42,069 nt of DNA from a virus (IMGVR_UViG_2541047817_000001:1-42069); one strand, 5' to 3'. Positions 1,459 to 21,070 are shown, counted from the first letter of the stretch. Notes: a model not told the origin generated them from the sequence alone. Numbers and translations: made by a program.

Positions 1459-2622
1459 TTACACATCATTAGTACCTTCCTTATTTTTTGACTGGGACAA
1501 ATTTGGGACCGATGGGTTCAGGATCGAGTCTATTTGCCGTGCGTGTTCGGTAAGGTGATTAGGTGCGAGGTGAGCATATCGACGAACCATTTCGATAGAC
1601 TCCCAGCCTCCCATTTCCTGTAACACTGACAACGGGACTCCGGCTTGAACCAGCCAACTTGCCCAGGTGTGTCTCAAGTCGTGAAATCTGAAATCATCAA
1701 TACCTGCTCGTCTCAGCGCCGCTTTCCAGGCTGTGTTTGCGTCATACCGCATCTTCCTGACCGTTGGCGCTTTCGTTCCGTCTGGTTTGGTACAGCTTTC
1801 CTTGTAAACAAATACCCAACGGTGATGATTCCCGATTTGTTTTTTCAATACGCGACATGCAGTATCATTCAGCGCAACGCCAATTGCGCGGTTTGATTTA
1901 CTCTCTTCCGGGTTTATCCATGCCACCCGGCGCTGCATGTCTATTTGTTGCCATTCAAGGTTGATGATGTTCGAGCGTCTTAAGCCTGTTGCCAGTGCAA
2001 ATTCAACAACAGACTTTAATGGCTCCGGACATTCATCAATCAGCCTTTGTGCTTCATGAGGCTCCAGCCAGCGGATACGTTTATTCTTCGGTTGAGGCAC
2101 TTTAATAATTGGTGCCTTATCCAGCATTTTCCATTCACGCTCTGCGGCTCTTAGCAGGGCCTTTATAAATGAAAGATGCGTAGCCTTCGTTGCAACGGAC
2201 GCTGGTTTTGGCGTGTATTCTGGAACAGGTTTCCCTTTTTTTCTGCATGCTTCTGCCCTGAGTTTCCAGTTTTCCTCATGACGCCGGTTTGTCATTTTCT
2301 GCATCGCTGAATAAATTTTTGATTCAGTGATGTCTCTTAGTTGCATCCCTGCGAAATGTTGAAGCCAGAATCCGATCCGGCTTTTGTCATCGTCCAGTGA
2401 TTTTTTATGTGCTTTCTCTTCAAGCCACCTGACACACGCTTCCTCGAACGTTATATCAGGTATTTCACCAAGTTTGCTGACCCGCCATGCTTCAGCCTTT
2501 AGCTTGTCATGGAGTTCTGTCGCCTGCCTTTTGTCCTTTGTTCCAAGAGACTGTTTAAATCTTTTACCGTTCGGCAATGTGAAACTGGCGTACCATATTT
2601 CACCTCTGCGGAAGAGTGACAT
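1459..2622 (-). CDS. int: Tyrosine site-specific integrase, P22 Int-like (387 aa)
   Basis: 387-aa ORF starting [47 protein letters not shown], closely resembling P22 integrase as recalled. C-terminal catalytic region carries [10 protein letters not shown] and RRYAHL. Adjacent to thrW, the known P22 attachment site. Confidence 0.93.
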
Positions 2623-2849
2623 TTTCTTTCCTCTGTTATGCCATCACCCGCGCTCACCTGGACAGTATGCAGCGGAGACTGAAGAGCCGCAATGCAGGCT
2701 TGTCGTGTTGTGAGGTAAGGAGATTTATTCTTAGTGGGATCTTTGCGTGTTGCCTGAAGACGCCCTGTGCGTATCCAGTTAATGGCAGTCGGTCTGGATA
2801 TCTTGAGAAAATGACAGGCCTCATCGAGTGTGAGGCTGTATGGCTCCAT
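2499..2849 (-). CDS. xis: Excisionase (Xis), HTH type (116 aa)
   Basis: Internal ATG at 2847-2849 gives a 116-aa protein [31 protein letters not shown] with an AlpA/Xis-type helix-turn-helix. It sits immediately upstream of int and overlaps its 5' end. Start is inferred from TAATG overlap with the upstream gene. Confidence 0.6.
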
Positions 2850-3154
2850 TATTTCACCTCTTGCTGTGACATTGTTGAAAAATGGATACCAGCTCGTTGC
2901 TGCCAGACGATCCAACCGAGAGTCATATCCCATGCCATGTATTCGTTATCGCCGTTTTTTGCTCTCCGACGATCTACTAAGTCACCGAAACGCTTTTCCA
3001 TGAATAATTCATAAGCTTCGCGTTCATCTGGTTCTACTTCCAGAGATAGGAGTGCGATTTCATAAGCACGGCGCTCAATATCGTCTCGCACGTCAAGGCT
3101 GCTGATACGCTCTTTAATTTCTTTAATCAGTTCTTTGTCGGTAAAAGTGGTCAT
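2849..3154 (-). CDS. Hypothetical acidic phage protein (101 aa), YfdT-like by size and position
   Basis: ORF-track ORF; start overlaps the upstream gene stop (ATGA). Same length and position as yfdT in the K-12 CPS-53 block (assignment from memory). Confidence 0.55.
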   Translation of the reverse strand: MTTFTDKELIKEIKERISSLDVRDDIERRAYEIALLSLEVEPDEREAYELFMEKRFGDLVDRRRAKNGDNEYMAWDMTLGWIVWQQRAGIHFSTMSQQEVK

Positions 3155-3510
3155 TATGCTCCAGCCTCCGGTGCTTTTGGCATTACTGCCCAGTGAGTGA
3201 TATTGACGTTTTCAAGGTCCCCGACCTGAAATGTCCACTGCCATTCTCCGGTTTCTTTTTGTCCCCAGGTGTACCAGAGAGAACGCCAGCCAATTAGCCA
3301 GCCTTCTCCGTTAGCATCGAATAACAAAACACTTTCATTTGCTGGTGGCAGTTCAGTTGACACTGGTATTACTTTGTTTTCCTGTGCTGCACATTTAGCT
3401 TCAAGCGCATCGAATTTACGCACCAGGTATTCAGCATCTGTTTCATTTACTTTCAGATCTCGCGGTACACATCTCCCACGAAGAAACCCTTCCATTTCGA
3501 AAACATTCAT
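3154..3510 (-). CDS. DUF551-like phage protein (YfdS-like)
   Basis: ORF-track ORF 3154..3516; the likely start is the ATG at 3508-3510, which overlaps the upstream stop (ATGA). Trp-rich C-terminus (WLIGWRSLWYTWGQKETGEWQW) is typical of DUF551 prophage proteins. Confidence 0.6.
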   Translation of the reverse strand: MNVFEMEGFLRGRCVPRDLKVNETDAEYLVRKFDALEAKCAAQENKVIPVSTELPPANESVLLFDANGEGWLIGWRSLWYTWGQKETGEWQWTFQVGDLENVNITHWAVMPKAPEAGA

Positions 3511-4043
3511 GCGCATTTGCGTAACTCCGATAACTCGTTAAAGCGTTCCATAAACATCCCGTAGGCATGGCCCGGTGCCAGTGGAATCACGTTGAACATC
3601 TCTGTTGCCGGGATACCTTCCAGTACAGGCCAGAAAGAGCCATCATCAAGCCCGAGATCGCGGCGTTCGGTTGCCAGCATGATGAGATCGGCATATTTCA
3701 CGGGCGTACTCATAACTGGGGGTAACCCGTATTTCTCACGGATTACGGCGTCTATTTTTTCTTCCATTTGTTTATAGTCAGGAAGAAGGCGTTTCAGTGG
3801 TGCGGGAATGTCCTGGCAATACGCTTCTGTTGCATCATGCATTAACGCTTCAAAAGCAAATTCCTGCGGCACCAGCTGGCTGCAAAGAACCGCATGTTGG
3901 GCGACGCTGTAGAAGTGCGAAAGATGACCGGCAAAGCGACAGATATTTGAAAGGGAAACCGCGATATCGTTAATATCGATGTCGTCTTTATTTATCCTGT
4001 CATAATAAAAATGCTTCCCGGAAAAAGTTTTAATAAATGACAT
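3507..4043 (-). CDS. yfdR: HD-domain phosphohydrolase / 5'-deoxynucleotidase-like protein (YfdR-like, 178 aa)
   Basis: Internal start MSFIKTFSGKHFYYD gives 178 aa. Contains an H..HD-type motif (ALMHDATEAY) consistent with an HD hydrolase. Size and context match YfdR of CPS-53 (from memory). Confidence 0.75.
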   Translation of the reverse strand: MSFIKTFSGKHFYYDRINKDDIDINDIAVSLSNICRFAGHLSHFYSVAQHAVLCSQLVPQEFAFEALMHDATEAYCQDIPAPLKRLLPDYKQMEEKIDAVIREKYGLPPVMSTPVKYADLIMLATERRDLGLDDGSFWPVLEGIPATEMFNVIPLAPGHAYGMFMERFNELSELRKCA

Positions 4044-5423: not shown

Positions 5424-5891
5424 TTTGCTGCTCCTCATCATATCGACCCTGCAAGGTCGGTTAGTTTCTCCACAAAACAGAGAAGAACACCTGCGGTGAC
5501 TGCCGCCCGGATGGATTGGGTTATGAGCCCGTCGTCCGGTGATGCTCTTCTCTGTTTTGTAAAAAGGACGGTACCAGCCGGAAGCAAGGGTACAAGCTGG
5601 TACCGCCAAGACTACACACAGCATAAAGTTGTGGTGCCGGGTGCCTCCCGGTGCCTGGCGAAGGTTGCACACCAGGCGGGTGGGTATCCACAGAAGGTCG
5701 ACTGTCAGCCTCAACCTTAACCCGCGTGCGCTGAGCCGCATTCACCACAACGCTAAGGATTCTCTCTGGTTGAAAATACTTAGCTGTTATGTGCCTGCTT
5801 TTAGCCACATCAGGCGAGGTGGACCTAGTTATTCCCCAACAACAAGGATTCGGTTAATCTGGTTATCCCCAACAACGTAAAAGGAAAAGAA
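5424..5891. other. GC-rich, highly structured non-coding region (several hairpins plus tandem direct repeats); candidate structured RNA or regulatory region
   Basis: No ORF with a ribosome-binding site. Perfect 14-bp inverted repeat CAAAACAGAGAAGA (5473-5486) / TCTTCTCTGTTTTG (5546-5559); 9-bp hairpin GGTACCAGC...GCTGGTACC (about 5570-5604); CCGGG...CCCGG and GCCTGG...CCAGGC stems (about 5636-5677); tandem direct repeats GTTAT(T)CCCCAACAAC at 5828-5843 and 5862-5876. Confidence 0.4.
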
Positions 5892-6326
5892 ATGTCCGGT
5901 AATATCTATACGCTGTACAAATCCCACTGTGAAAATGTTGGAAAGTATCGGGGCATTGAAATCAGTGGGGTAGTGTCATCAGTCGAAATAAGCAAAGTTG
6001 AATCAAGGGCAACATTACTTACTCTTTTGGACCTTGTCTTACATGAGCACCGGAAGAAATTCGGCACTCCCTATAATCAGTTGAATGGGAAAAAGGCTCT
6101 GGTTCACCTTATTCTGATGAAGCATCACTGGATGCCAAAACAGATTAATGAGATGAAATTTGATGAACTTCTTCTTTCAATTCAGGATGAACTCACACTT
6201 GATAAAATAAGCGTAACCGCCCAGAAATTTTTAGATTATCGAGACTGGAGATCACAAATTCATCACTTTGATGATTTTGACGAAAATGAATGGGATCCTA
6301 ATTTGTCTGCACAATATCTAAAGTAA
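5892..6326 (+). CDS. AT-rich orphan hypothetical protein (144 aa)
   Basis: ATG at 5892 preceded by AGGA. Visibly AT-rich compared with flanking DNA. No recognisable domain. Transcribed convergently with the first gene of the leftward early operon. Confidence 0.55.
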   Translation: MSGNIYTLYKSHCENVGKYRGIEISGVVSSVEISKVESRATLLTLLDLVLHEHRKKFGTPYNQLNGKKALVHLILMKHHWMPKQINEMKFDELLLSIQDELTLDKISVTAQKFLDYRDWRSQIHHFDDFDENEWDPNLSAQYLK

Positions 6327-6504
6327 CATCCTGTGATAAAACCGTGATTTCCTGATCCAGTTTTTTTAAGGAGTCTATTGTTTCCTGTCGATAAGACAGC
6401 ACTTCACGAAGCTGGTTTATAGCTGCCAGCTTCTTTGTCATCCACTCATAAATTTCCTCATCTGTGTAGCCAGGCGCGACGATTTTGGGTTCTGTTTTGT
6501 GCAT
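6298..6504 (-). CDS. Small hypothetical protein (68 aa), first gene downstream of the putative PL
   Basis: ATG at 6502-6504 (MHKTEPKIVAPGYTDEEIYEW...) preceded by GAGGAG at a 7-nt spacing. The ORF-track ORF extends to 6519 using a TTG. Confidence 0.5.
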   Translation of the reverse strand: MHKTEPKIVAPGYTDEEIYEWMTKKLAAINQLREVLSYRQETIDSLKKLDQEITVLSQDVTLDIVQTN

Positions 6505-6562
6505 TTCACATCTCCTCAAGTTATCAGTTACTTGTTGATGGGGACCAGATTGTTAAAGAGCT

Positions 6563-6590
6563 AAGCGTCCTGTAGGGCGCTTTTTTGTTG
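6563..6590 (+). terminator. Rho-independent terminator-like hairpin
   Basis: AAGCGTCC-TGTA-GGGCGCTT stem-loop followed by TTTTTTGTTG. Confidence 0.4.
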
Positions 6591-6639
6591 CTAACGAATC
6601 ATCCTGGACTTCATATGCCCCAGGCGGCTACTTCGTGGG

Positions 6640-6738
6640 CGTCCTGCCTGTTCGTTGTTTCGCTTGGGTACATTATGTATCTCAAGGGTACATTGTCAAG
6701 TATAAAAAAACCTGCCGAAGCAGGTTCATAAACATTGA
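6640..6738 (-). promoter_or_regulatory. Putative OL/PL region with repeated GGTACA-type operator motifs
   Basis: GGGTACATT occurs twice (6666-6674 and 6686-6694) and TACATTATGTA is palindromic. The same half-site recurs in the cI-cro intergenic region. Confidence 0.4.
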
Positions 6739-7413
6739 TTAGGCTTTGATTTTGTATCTTCTTGGTTTTCCTGAGAAAATCACTGTACCAATTATAGAGC
6801 AATTACCGTTGATCTTAATGTAAGGCTCAGGCCAGTTTGGGTTTAACGCTTTGAGATAACGCTGTGTCCCATCTTCTATCAACCTTTTGAAGGTGGTTTC
6901 ACCTGTATCGTGCATCAATGCAATAACGTCGTCACCGTGGCAGGCAGGTACTTCAGGATCGACAAAAATCATGTCTCCCGGGCGGTACTCATCAATCATT
7001 GAATCACCTATCACCCGCAAGATATAAGTCATTTCCCCACAGGGTACAGGGCAGGGATACGTTTCTGCTGTGCTCAAATCAACCTCAGAATATCCAACTT
7101 CTTTCCATGCTCCGGCCTGTACCCATGATATGACAGGGACTAATGTGATTTGTTTATTAGTGATTGAAACATCAGGTTTTTTTGTGATGTTCGTTGTCTG
7201 GTGTTCTTGATCGAGCCATCCGACAGGCAGGTCGAAACATTTTTCGATGTGTCGTGCCATGCTGTCACCGATATTTTTAGTAGCACCATCTCCCATAAAC
7301 CTGCTGGTCTGGGTTGGCTCGCGATCAATCATAGTGGCAAAGGAAGAATTCCCGCCAACACCATCTCTCAGTTTTCTGGCGTTAGACCGCCGGATGTCAT
7401 GGATTGTTTTCAT
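6739..7413 (-). CDS. cI: cI-like prophage repressor (LexA/S24 peptidase family, 224 aa)
   Basis: C-terminal S24 autopeptidase signature with the catalytic Ser in VIGDSM and the Lys in TFKRL. Positively charged N-terminal DNA-binding region. Divergent from a Cro-like gene across an operator-rich intergenic region. Confidence 0.85.
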   Translation of the reverse strand: MKTIHDIRRSNARKLRDGVGGNSSFATMIDREPTQTSRFMGDGATKNIGDSMARHIEKCFDLPVGWLDQEHQTTNITKKPDVSITNKQITLVPVISWVQAGAWKEVGYSEVDLSTAETYPCPVPCGEMTYILRVIGDSMIDEYRPGDMIFVDPEVPACHGDDVIALMHDTGETTFKRLIEDGTQRYLKALNPNWPEPYIKINGNCSIIGTVIFSGKPRRYKIKA

Positions 7414-18845: not shown

Positions 18846-19340
18846 ATGGCTGGAACGGCGGGGCGTTCCGGGCGTCGCCCCAAGCCAACGGCGCGCAAGG
18901 CGCTGGCCGGAAACCCCGGCAAGCGAGCCCTGAATAAAGATGAACCTGTTTTTACGCCCATCAAAGGTGTTGAGCCACCGGAGTGGTTCGCTGAAGAAGA
19001 TCTCCCTCTCGCTACGATCATGTGGCAACTGACAACTAAAGAACTCTGCGGTCAGGGCCTGCTGTGCGTGACTGACCTCGCGGTGCTTGAGCGGTGGTGT
19101 GTGGCCTACGAGTTCTGGCGACGTGCCGTGAAAAATATTGCCAGACAGGGCAACACCATCACCGGTGCAATGGGCGGCAGGGTCAAAAATCCGGAGCTGA
19201 CCGCCAAAAAAGAACAGGAGTCCGAGATGAGCAGTACGGGGGCAATGCTCGGACTCGACCCCAGCAGCCGCCAGCGTCTGATTGGCCTGGCGGGGAAGAA
19301 GAAAGCCACTAACCCGTTTCTGAAAATCATCGAATCATGA
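18846..19340 (+). CDS. Terminase small subunit
   Basis: ATG at 18846 preceded by GGAG. Basic N-terminus ([27 protein letters not shown]), directly upstream of and overlapping the large terminase gene (ATGA). Confidence 0.75.
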
Positions 19341-21070
19341 GCCGGAAATCTTACCCCAACGTAAATGCTGCCAATCAGTATGCCCGGGATGTCGTGCGCG
19401 GAAAGATTGTGGCCTGCCAGTTTGTGATTCAGGCCTGCCAGCGCCATCTTGATGACCTGATGGCGGAAAAAAGTAAGTCGTTTCGTTACCGCTTCGACAA
19501 GGACCTGGCTGAACGGGCCGCCAAATTTATTCAGCTGTTGCCGCACACCAAGGGTGAGTGGGCATTCAAGAGGATGCCCATCACGCTGGAGCCGTGGCAG
19601 CTCTTTGTGATCTGCTGCGCGTTTGGCTGGGTCAATAAAGGCTCCCGGCTGCGCCGCTTCCGTGAGGTGTATACCGAAATCCCCCGTAAGAACGGCAAAT
19701 CGGCAATCTCTGCCGGTGTCGCCCTGTATTGTTTTGCCTGTGATAACGAGTTCGGCGCGGAAGTGTATTCCGGTGCCACGACGGAGAAACAGGCATGGGA
19801 AGTCTTTCGTCCGGCAAGACTGATGTGTAAACGCACACCCATGCTGACGGAAGCGTTCGGGATTGAGGTTAACGCCTCAAACATGAACCGTCCGGAGGAT
19901 GGTGCGCGTTTTGAACCGCTGATCGGTAACCCCGGTGATGGTTCATCACCCCACTGTGCGGTGGTGGATGAATATCACGAGCACGCCACAGATGCGCTTT
20001 ACACCACGATGCTTACCGGGATGGGGGCGCGACGTCAGCCACTGATGTGGGCTATCACTACCGCCGGGTACAACATTGAGGGGCCGTGCTACGACAAACG
20101 GCGGGAAGTCATCGAGATGCTCAACGGCTCGGTGCCTAACGATGAACTGTTCGGGATCATCTATACCGTTGATGAAGGTGACGACTGGACCGACCCGCAG
20201 GTGCTGGAAAAAGCCAATCCAAATATTGGCGTGTCGGTTTATCGCGAATTTTTGTTAAGTCAGCAGCAGCGTGCGAAAAATAACGCCCGTCTGGCAAACG
20301 TCTTTAAAACAAAACACCTCAATATCTGGGTGTCGGCGCGTTCGGCGTATTTCAACCTGGTGAGCTGGCAGAGCTGCGAGGATAAATCACTGACCCTTGA
20401 GCAGTTCGAGGGGCAGCCGTGCATTCTGGCCTTTGACCTGGCGCGTAAGCTGGATATGAACAGCATGGCGCGACTTTATACCCGTGAGATTGACGGTAAA
20501 ACGCATTACTACAGTGTGGCCCCGCGTTTCTGGGTACCGTATGACACGGTGTACAGCGTCGAGAAAAATGAAGATCGACGGACAGCCGAACGCTTTCAGA
20601 AATGGGTGGAAATGGGCGTTCTGACCGTTACCGATGGTGCGGAGGTGGATTATCGCTACATCCTCGAGGAGGCCAAAGCGGCGAACAAAATCAGCCCGGT
20701 CAGTGAGTCACCCATCGACCCCTTCGGGGCGACCGGGTTGTCACATGACCTTGCTGATGAAGACCTGAACCCCATCACTATCATTCAGAACTACACCAAC
20801 ATGTCCGACCCGATGAAAGAGCTGGAAGCGGCAATTGAATCGGGGCGCTTTCATCATGATGGCAATCCCATCATGACCTGGTGTATCGGCAACGTGGTCG
20901 GCAAAACCATTCCGGGTAACGATGATGTGGTGAAGCCCGTCAAAGAGCAGGCGGAAAACAAAATCGATGGTGCAGTTGCGCTGATTATGGCAGTTGGCAG
21001 AGCCATGCTGTACGAGAAAGAAGACACGCTGTCTGACCACATTGAGTCCTATGGGATCCGCTCGCTTTAA
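19337..21070 (+). CDS. Terminase large subunit (577 aa)
   Basis: Size, position and ATPase/nuclease-type architecture; a Walker-A-like motif (PRKNGKS) near residue 110. Confidence 0.9.

Follow-up and report, generated by a model that had tools for sequence, protein, structure and literature searches.

A convergent, 3'-overlapping pair of ECs1072-family and YdfC-family genes in enterobacterial prophages

Results

The gene pair and its setting

The stretch of DNA analyzed here (the window, 42,069 nt) is an SfIV/SfV-like lambdoid prophage of Escherichia coli. Its integrase gene adjoins a tRNA (1369-1441) and is followed by a leftward block carrying the RefSeq names yfdT, yfdR, yfdQ, and yfdP; beyond the region of interest lie the S24 repressor gene (ymfK/cI, 6739-7413, minus strand), a cro-like gene, and ymfL. 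Between yfdP and cI are two convergent genes, a large one of 144 codons on the plus strand (5892-6326, ATG start) and a small one of 68 codons on the minus strand (6298-6504, ATG at 6504), whose 3' ends overlap by 29 bp (6298-6326). Both open reading frames and their overlap are as given in a preliminary description of this region, which had also assigned to each gene a ribosome-binding site of its own. The large gene has AAGGA at 5881-5885, and the small gene has GAGGAG (the reverse complement of 6512-6517) 7 nt upstream of its start. An in-frame TTG at 6519 would extend the small product to 73 residues; its homologues begin at the ATG instead. The AT-richness remarked on earlier is confirmed, the GC content being 0.379 in the large gene and 0.406 in the small gene versus 0.498 in the window; it is 0.550 in the left flank.

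The surrounding 1.8 kb are 98.2% identical to Shigella phage SfIV, and of 5426 complete E. coli genomes examined, 272 contain at least 80% of this region. The pair is thus common, this allele alone being present in about 5% of these genomes.

Comparison with related phages (L003, L006, L007, and L008) identifies the gap between yfdP and cI (approximately 5822-6595) as a cargo hotspot of this phage group. SfV, mEp460, Ayreon, and PhiR29 have flanks in common with the window and different genes in the gap: orf33 (98 aa, minus strand) in SfV, a 122-aa HTH protein (minus strand) in mEp460, a 64-aa ORF (plus strand) and a 39-aa ORF (minus strand) in Ayreon, and a 242-aa protein (plus strand) in PhiR29. 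The left breakpoints of the cassette fall at about 5822-5876, both end points included (5609 in Ayreon), and the right ones at 6545-6595 (6545 in PhiR29; 6642 in Ayreon). Among the SfV orf33, mEp460 122-aa, Ayreon 64-aa, and PhiR29 242-aa products, no recognizable defence gene was found and an HTH domain was the only identifiable feature. The cassette of the window is an accessory gene insert, a conserved two-gene module without a characterized function.

The large gene encodes a protein of the ECs1072 family

The large gene had previously been called an orphan. This is incorrect: both genes belong to catalogued families, the large one to NF033230/phrog_5286 and the small one to YdfC/phrog_1744. 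The 144-aa protein matches the NCBIfam model NF033230 ("ECs1072 family phage-associated protein") with 157.8 bits (E = 1.7e-46; curated cut-off 70 bits), spanning model positions 2-142 of 142, and it matches phrog_5286 over its full length; neither of these catalogued families has an assigned function. A profile search of 1.84 billion representatives collected 76 clusters at 50% identity, with nearly all members being single-domain proteins of 143-157 residues, and the 90% cluster of the window protein has 547 members. In an alignment of 48 sequences W134 is invariant, and L50, R54, L64, G66, A69, and H72 are nearly so. Between the window and an allele from E. albertii the dN/dS ratio is 0.225 at a dS of 0.76, a substitution pattern by which the gene is under purifying selection; when the cassette sequence was shuffled 5000 times, 144 or more consecutive codons without a stop were obtained 8 times. 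The preliminary description had made the reality of this gene depend on its being retained as an ORF in homologous prophages, and throughout the 76 clusters it is.

The AlphaFold2 model of the 144-aa protein, built from the family alignment, is all-alpha and confident (pLDDT 94.1, pTM 0.88). The homology and structure searches suggested earlier for the pair succeeded in that families were found for both proteins, and failed in that relatives in Pfam, PADLOC, PDB, and BFVD were not. Thus, no Pfam family was detected at E-values up to 0.1 for the 144-aa protein, none among 48 members of its family, and none for the 68-aa protein. No component family of PADLOC-DB 2.0 (systems to 2023) matched either protein at E-values up to 1; a sequence-profile search of the PDB with the 144-aa protein gave no match, and a Foldseek search of its model against BFVD gave no relative (best E-value 0.66). 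No DNA-binding or RNA-binding fold was recognized in it. Judged from the predicted structure, the fold is provisionally new relative to PDB and BFVD. The protein is hydrophilic (GRAVY -0.47), the highest Kyte-Doolittle mean over 19 residues being 0.84, and no membrane-spanning hydrophobic segment was found in such windows. A literature search on ECs1072, the protein accessions, the PHROG and NCBIfam identifiers, and the PhiR phages returned nothing functional.

The small gene encodes a protein of the YdfC family

The 68-aa protein is related to YdfC (b1573) of E. coli K-12, with 27 of 66 residues identical (41%, E = 9e-18) and no gaps, and it matches phrog_1744; K-12 YdfC in turn scores 60.8 bits against a profile of the small partners described below. 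These partners have in common an N-terminal motif, P-x-I-x-x-x-G-x-S/T-x-E-E-L-x-x-W-L/M, and are acidic and helical, with pI values of 4.5-6.1 (4.8 for the window protein). The dN/dS ratio of the small gene is 0.26. A profile search recovered 222 clusters at 90% identity across Enterobacterales, annotated as hypothetical throughout. YdfC itself is an uncharacterized small protein encoded at the head of the dicBF operon of the Qin prophage (PMC5069750). When this operon was induced in K-12 in a form lacking dicF and dicB, growth was not inhibited and ydfA, ydfB, and ydfC were still expressed (PMC5069750), and so YdfC is no strong toxin.

The codons for the invariant W134-D-P of the large protein, TGGGATCC(T/C)A, form a near-perfect palindrome (6288-6297 in the window), and the extended small ORFs of four loci (L011, L095, L103, and L104) read the same bases on the other strand, which gives them a conserved FPWDP tail. 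The conservation of this tail is probably a by-product of the overlap.

Candidate regulatory elements

A PL-like promoter (TTGACA 6699-6694, a 16-nt spacer, CATAAT 6677-6672, minus strand; 11 of 12 positions matching) is situated just after the cI terminator (6727-6708), with two operator-like repeated 19-mers (family D1, 6656-6694) around it. The leftward operon thus begins with the small gene as its first ORF, and the preliminary description had likewise placed this gene at the operon's head. The leader between this promoter and the small gene contains the plus-strand intrinsic terminator proposed earlier at 6563-6590, where there is indeed a hairpin (6563-6582) followed by TTTTTTGTT; PhiR29 keeps this terminator behind its different plus-strand cargo gene. 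Directly after the hairpin, in the leftward direction, comes a boxA-like GCTCTTTAACAA (6550-6561, minus strand), the only exact match in the window to what we take to be the rrn boxA core. Hairpin and boxA-like sequence together may work as a terminator in one direction and as a nut-like site in the other. PhiR29 retains this combined element as well, with no leftward gene ahead of yfdP. No N-like protein is evident. A second boxA as a nutR counterpart was looked for and dropped, none being convincing; the idea that the PL leader is a structured RNA was also abandoned (z-score 0.27).

A scan for consensus promoters found none on the plus strand. The candidate promoter of the large gene (TTCCCC 5832-5837, 17 nt, TAATCT 5855-5860) is a weak sigma-70 match at 6 of 12 positions. 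An element of the form TTC(C/T)(C/T)C-N17-TA(A/T/C)(T/C)(C/T)T occurs at -62 to -33 from the ATG in four other loci (L004, L010, L098, and L100), where the large proteins are 22-56% identical. In the two loci L010 and L100 the 65 nt upstream of the large gene are, by eye, far more alike than the coding regions (25% protein identity). The candidate promoter also lies within the swapped cassette, as delimited by the left breakpoints at 5822 and 5876. The conservation of this upstream element in divergent loci is evidence, though no proof, that the cassette carries its own promoter. A direct repeat, TTATyCCCCAACAAC, is present in two copies 33 nt apart (5829-5876, plus strand; family D4, 5833-5843 and 5866-5876), spanning the candidate -35 box and the 5' UTR, with an AAGGA-like stretch after each copy. 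A similar duplicated unit precedes the homologue in L004, and the repeat could be a binding site for a regulator or of the Hfq type.

Two plus-strand hairpins could mark the ends of the large-gene transcript. One, a predicted weak terminator within the small gene (6408-6433), is conserved in the E. albertii locus L005, and comparable plus-strand hairpins lie within the small gene in L011 and L101; the other is the terminator at 6563-6590, and a transcript that extends to it would cover, in antisense, all of the small gene together with the ribosome-binding site of that gene. The idea that plus-strand termination occurs at a fixed place past the small gene was considered and dropped, as positions differ among the loci. 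In the opposite direction, no convincing minus-strand terminator was found between the small and the large gene, and transcripts from PL should therefore cross the large gene antisense.

Further along the leftward operon, the gap between the cassette and yfdP (5430-5830, minus strand) is strongly structured, the MFE being -172.9 kcal/mol and the z-score -6.25; the gap contains an inverted repeat of 25 nt (5472-5560) and, at 5569-5605, a hairpin with a U-run. Rfam STnc100 matches 5558-5781 (minus strand) just below threshold, with 43.4 bits versus 47 (E = 1e-7), and there is a weak DicF match at 5566-5620. With these matches the leftward operon reads as a ydfC-like gene, a long UTR, and an sRNA, like ydfC-dicF in Qin. 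A frameshifted pseudogene called here by PGAP and a 226-aa ORF annotated in SfIV are both probably spurious.

Linkage of the two families

Contigs encoding homologues of the large gene (22-72% identity) were scanned in six frames with the profiles of both families; a separate search for related loci returned 80 identical E. coli copies from viral contigs and three loci from genome contigs. A convergent, overlapping YdfC-like ORF was found in the window, in E. albertii (L005), in metagenomic or assembled prophages (L010, L096, and L098), in Serratia quinivorans (L095), in L011/L012, L099, L100, and L101, in Salmonella phage ST64B (L103), in Klebsiella phage KPP5665-2 (L104), and next to the namesake of the large family, ECs1072 (now ECs_5703) of the Sakai prophage Sp4 (L106). 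One partner is missing from the annotation in each of the last three: in ST64B, where sb50 is the small gene, the large gene (2845-3279, plus strand) is unannotated, as is that of KPP5665-2 (2818-3291, plus strand), and in Sp4 it is the small partner (approximately 19170-19677, plus strand). All of the pairs examined have overlapping 3' ends, with an overlap of 29 bp in the window and up to about 317 bp in Sp4. The only sampled large-gene locus without a partner is L004.

The linkage also holds from the other side. Four randomly picked YdfC-like genes, from Citrobacter, Serratia marcescens, Pantoea, and Superficieibacter, all have a convergent overlapping gene of the ECs1072 family (148-178 bits). 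The exception is the Qin/PPompW clade of ydfC, in which the small gene has no large partner; a decayed ECs1072 gene was sought in the ydfC-dicF gap of K-12 and in PPompW, and this possibility was dropped when no remnant was found. The identity matrices of the two families are correlated (Mantel r = 0.80, p = 2e-4). On these comparisons, the ECs1072-family and YdfC-family genes constitute one conserved, co-diverging module of enterobacterial prophages. We found no paper describing this pairing.

In the E. albertii locus L005 (699-1312, corresponding to 5892-6504 of the window), recombination has replaced the large gene alone with a divergent allele (72% identical), with a sharp drop in identity between about 5890 and 6340 and a dS of 0.76, compared to 0.19 in cI and in the first 48 codons of the small gene. 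The small protein is approximately 98% identical over its first 48 residues, and its C-terminus is frameshifted to give 80 aa.

Orientation and operon context

The module occupies three kinds of position. In the window, L005, L010, L098, L099, and L100 it lies between the early-left genes and the repressor, on the PL side; in L096 and Sakai Sp4 it lies in the cro/cII/O operon, on the PR side; and in L101, L103, L104, and L108-L111 it is found between the Q antiterminator and the holin. In L011, Q is just upstream and the contig ends short of any holin. In every locus with readable flanks the small gene runs along the lytic operon, usually near its promoter, and the large gene is antisense to it; ECs1072 of Sakai, for example, is antisense between a cII-like gene and O. 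Such agreement in many loci would be very unlikely if orientation were free, and it is what a design based on convergent transcription requires.

Several neighbouring genes were recorded as well. In L099 the pair is followed by a true SieB gene (PF14163; 5827-6321, plus strand), which shares its strand with the large gene; in L101 a Tad2-like (anti-Thoeris) gene (2739-3497, minus strand) is located just upstream of the small gene; and a DUF6731 gene (2424-3832, minus strand) lies antisense between Q and the pair in L108.

Discussion

The pair recalls a known arrangement of lambdoid phages. In lambda, sieB (34482-35036, plus strand) abuts N (35037-35438, minus strand) just after nutL and OL, so the correspondence in position drawn by the preliminary description is accurate; with lambda and P22 the window has in common PL, a nut-type leader, a small leftward gene (N in lambda, gene 24 in P22), and a convergent rightward gene that meets it at the 3' ends. 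In P22, the lysogen expresses the rightward sieB, which keeps other phages out; the sas antisense RNA comes from PL transcription of the phage itself, and the Esc escape product protects that phage (PMC12197685). The proteins themselves are of other kinds. SieB is a membrane protein of Pfam family PF14163, whereas the 144-aa protein has neither a PF14163 match nor a hydrophobic segment, and since a true SieB gene lies beside the pair in L099, the two are not equivalent. A lambda N-type antiterminator has an arginine-rich N-terminus that binds boxB, whereas the 68-aa protein has no arginine in its first 25 residues and a pI of 4.8. Judged from their sequences, neither protein is related to N or SieB. 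Moreover, Esc is an internal product of sieB, whereas the candidate antidote considered here is a separate convergent gene.

We tentatively propose that the large gene encodes a protein expressed in the lysogen and the small gene an antagonist of this protein made in the lytic cycle, with convergent transcription making their expression reciprocal. The large gene would be made in the lysogen from its own weak promoter (5832-5860) while PL is repressed. Upon firing of PL, at induction or infection, RNA polymerase would transcribe the small gene and continue into the large one in the antisense direction; the small protein would thus be produced at the same time as collision and RNA pairing silence the large gene. 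The small protein would then act on the large one, most probably as an antidote, and the prophage could in this way hinder incoming phages and still complete a lytic cycle of its own. The proposal is in line with the linkage, co-divergence, and orientation of the pair, with the promoter-like element kept in position ahead of the large gene, and with the SieB and Tad2-like neighbours in L099 and L101. This polarity is favoured by the layout of lambda N/sieB and of P22 sieB/esc/sas, by the finding that YdfC alone is not toxic in K-12 (PMC5069750), by the account that it gives of stand-alone ydfC genes as escape genes, and by the small, acidic, helical character of the YdfC-like proteins, which is typical of inhibitors. 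Several observations are awkward for it. The 144-aa protein has no defence-family match, the other cargo of the hotspot is not recognizable as defence either, and the candidate promoter is weak. The exchange of the large gene alone in E. albertii fits poorly with a strict cognate pairing, and at the Q-holin position the small gene may be part of the leader transcribed from a late promoter that is always on, in which case its restriction to the lytic cycle is not assured. In uninduced Sakai, the ECs1072 probe was more than 4-fold down at the transition to stationary phase and the O, P, cII, and Q probes were up (PMC2241611), which gives weak support to a reciprocity between lysogenic and lytic expression. 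The interpretation advanced in the preliminary description is partly supported: the position taken by N and sieB in lambda, the orientation, and the conservation of the ORF bear it out, and the regulation of the large gene by antisense PL transcription and the superinfection-exclusion or anti-defence role that it suggested are conjectural.

The closest relative of the small gene in a known operon has a similar place. Like the 68-aa gene, ydfC of Qin is promoter-proximal in a repressor-controlled, leftward-type early operon, and in both a long untranslated stretch with an sRNA lies downstream (dicF in Qin; the sub-threshold STnc100-like element with its weak DicF match here). In K-12, ydfC comes third behind the promoter controlled by DicA (ydfA-ydfB-ydfC-dicF-dicB); the 68-aa gene is the first ORF after PL. 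Unlike the window, neither Qin nor PPompW has an ECs1072-family gene opposite ydfC.

Other systems resemble the pair in one respect each. BstA with its aba element and HepS of Gifsy-1 also combine a phage-harming prophage protein with a built-in means of self-escape (PMC8585504, PMC13043305). They have no sequence or fold relationship to the pair, for which a defence role is only proposed, and in these systems self-immunity is attributed to a DNA element or to a non-triggering tail-tip variant, not to a convergent partner gene.

Convergent units with overlapping 3' ends are likewise typical of some type I toxin-antitoxin systems, such as par/fst of pAD1 and txpA/ratA and bsrG/SR4 of B. subtilis prophages, in which each RNA is antisense to the other, the toxin being a short hydrophobic peptide and the antitoxin a non-coding RNA. 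The pair differs from these in that both partners are conserved, hydrophilic, soluble proteins under purifying selection. Nor does it have the features of a type II system, being convergent in every locus and matching no toxin or antitoxin family of Pfam.

The polarity could be the opposite one, although we regard this as unlikely: the YdfC-like protein would be a lytic factor, engaged in host takeover or mildly toxic, and the 144-aa protein its inhibitor expressed in the lysogen, guarding it from leaky lytic promoters or neutralizing the factor of incoming phages. Linkage, co-divergence, and orientation fit this arrangement equally well. The Q-holin loci even lend it some appeal, since the small gene there lies approximately 100-175 nt after Q, a place at which one would expect constitutive activity of a late promoter of the lambda type and at which an inhibitor made in the lysogen would make sense; the partnerless large gene of L004 could similarly be an orphan immunity protein. 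On the other hand, the harmless induction of the dicBF operon without dicF and dicB, with ydfABC expressed (PMC5069750), is difficult to reconcile with a strongly toxic YdfC, and phages of the Qin and PPompW types carry ydfC without a large partner or a remnant of one.

It is also rather improbable that the two proteins function independently and travel together by virtue of their overlapping ends and common terminator hairpins, the antisense arrangement tuning expression without any interaction of the products. Each family does occur alone (the large gene in L004, the small one in Qin and PPompW), the large gene of L005 was exchanged by itself, and the small-protein tails in the overlap are variable, as can be explained if the small frame simply continues into sequence antisense to the large gene. 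Against this, the two genes are still together in loci ranging from 100% to about 22% identity and have moved as a unit among three operon contexts, and an overlap of 29-90 bp alone would not stop partner loss over such divergence.

A role of the large protein in the phage's own lysis-lysogeny switch or lytic transcription (antitermination or leaky read-through) rather than against other phages has still less to recommend it. The module is always near the promoter of antitermination-dependent operons, either PL with its boxA-like leader or just after Q, and a convergent promoter would damp leaky transcription into toxic genes such as the holin or the dicB-like region. However, no DNA-binding or RNA-binding fold is recognized in the large protein, and SfV, mEp460, Ayreon, and PhiR29 lack the cassette and have other cargo in its place, so that it behaves as an accessory element and not as part of core regulation.

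Finally, its base composition, the absence of a consensus promoter, and its omission from the annotations of ST64B and KPP5665-2 might suggest that the 144-aa ORF is no gene and has stayed open by chance in AT-rich sequence facing a genuine transcript. This is effectively refuted by its dN/dS of 0.225 at a dS of 0.76, the invariant or nearly invariant R54, G66, H72, and W134, the 76 clusters of about equal length, the confident fold prediction, and the rarity of such an ORF in shuffled sequence (8 of 5000).

Returning to the proposed lysogen-expressed protein and its convergent antagonist, the pair may belong to a widespread, hitherto unrecognized prophage system in which an effector of new fold, made in the lysogen, blocks superinfecting phages and a small antidote is encoded convergently within the lytic operon of the prophage itself, with convergent transcription acting as the switch and the stand-alone YdfC proteins being anti-exclusion factors; in this full form the proposal is speculative, and we hold it to be possible but somewhat doubtful. 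Relatives of the pair are present in Salmonella, Klebsiella, Citrobacter, Serratia, Pantoea, and other Enterobacterales. If the proposal is correct, the lone YdfC genes of Qin and of PPompW phages would help phages to overcome resident copies of the system, and two uncharacterized families, including the K-12 y-gene ydfC, would receive their first functional context. It would also mean that the sieB-type design, in which a gene expressed in the lysogen opposes a lytic operon whose transcript carries the escape function, arose with unrelated proteins and can be transferred in cassette form among operons of the PL, PR, and late types.
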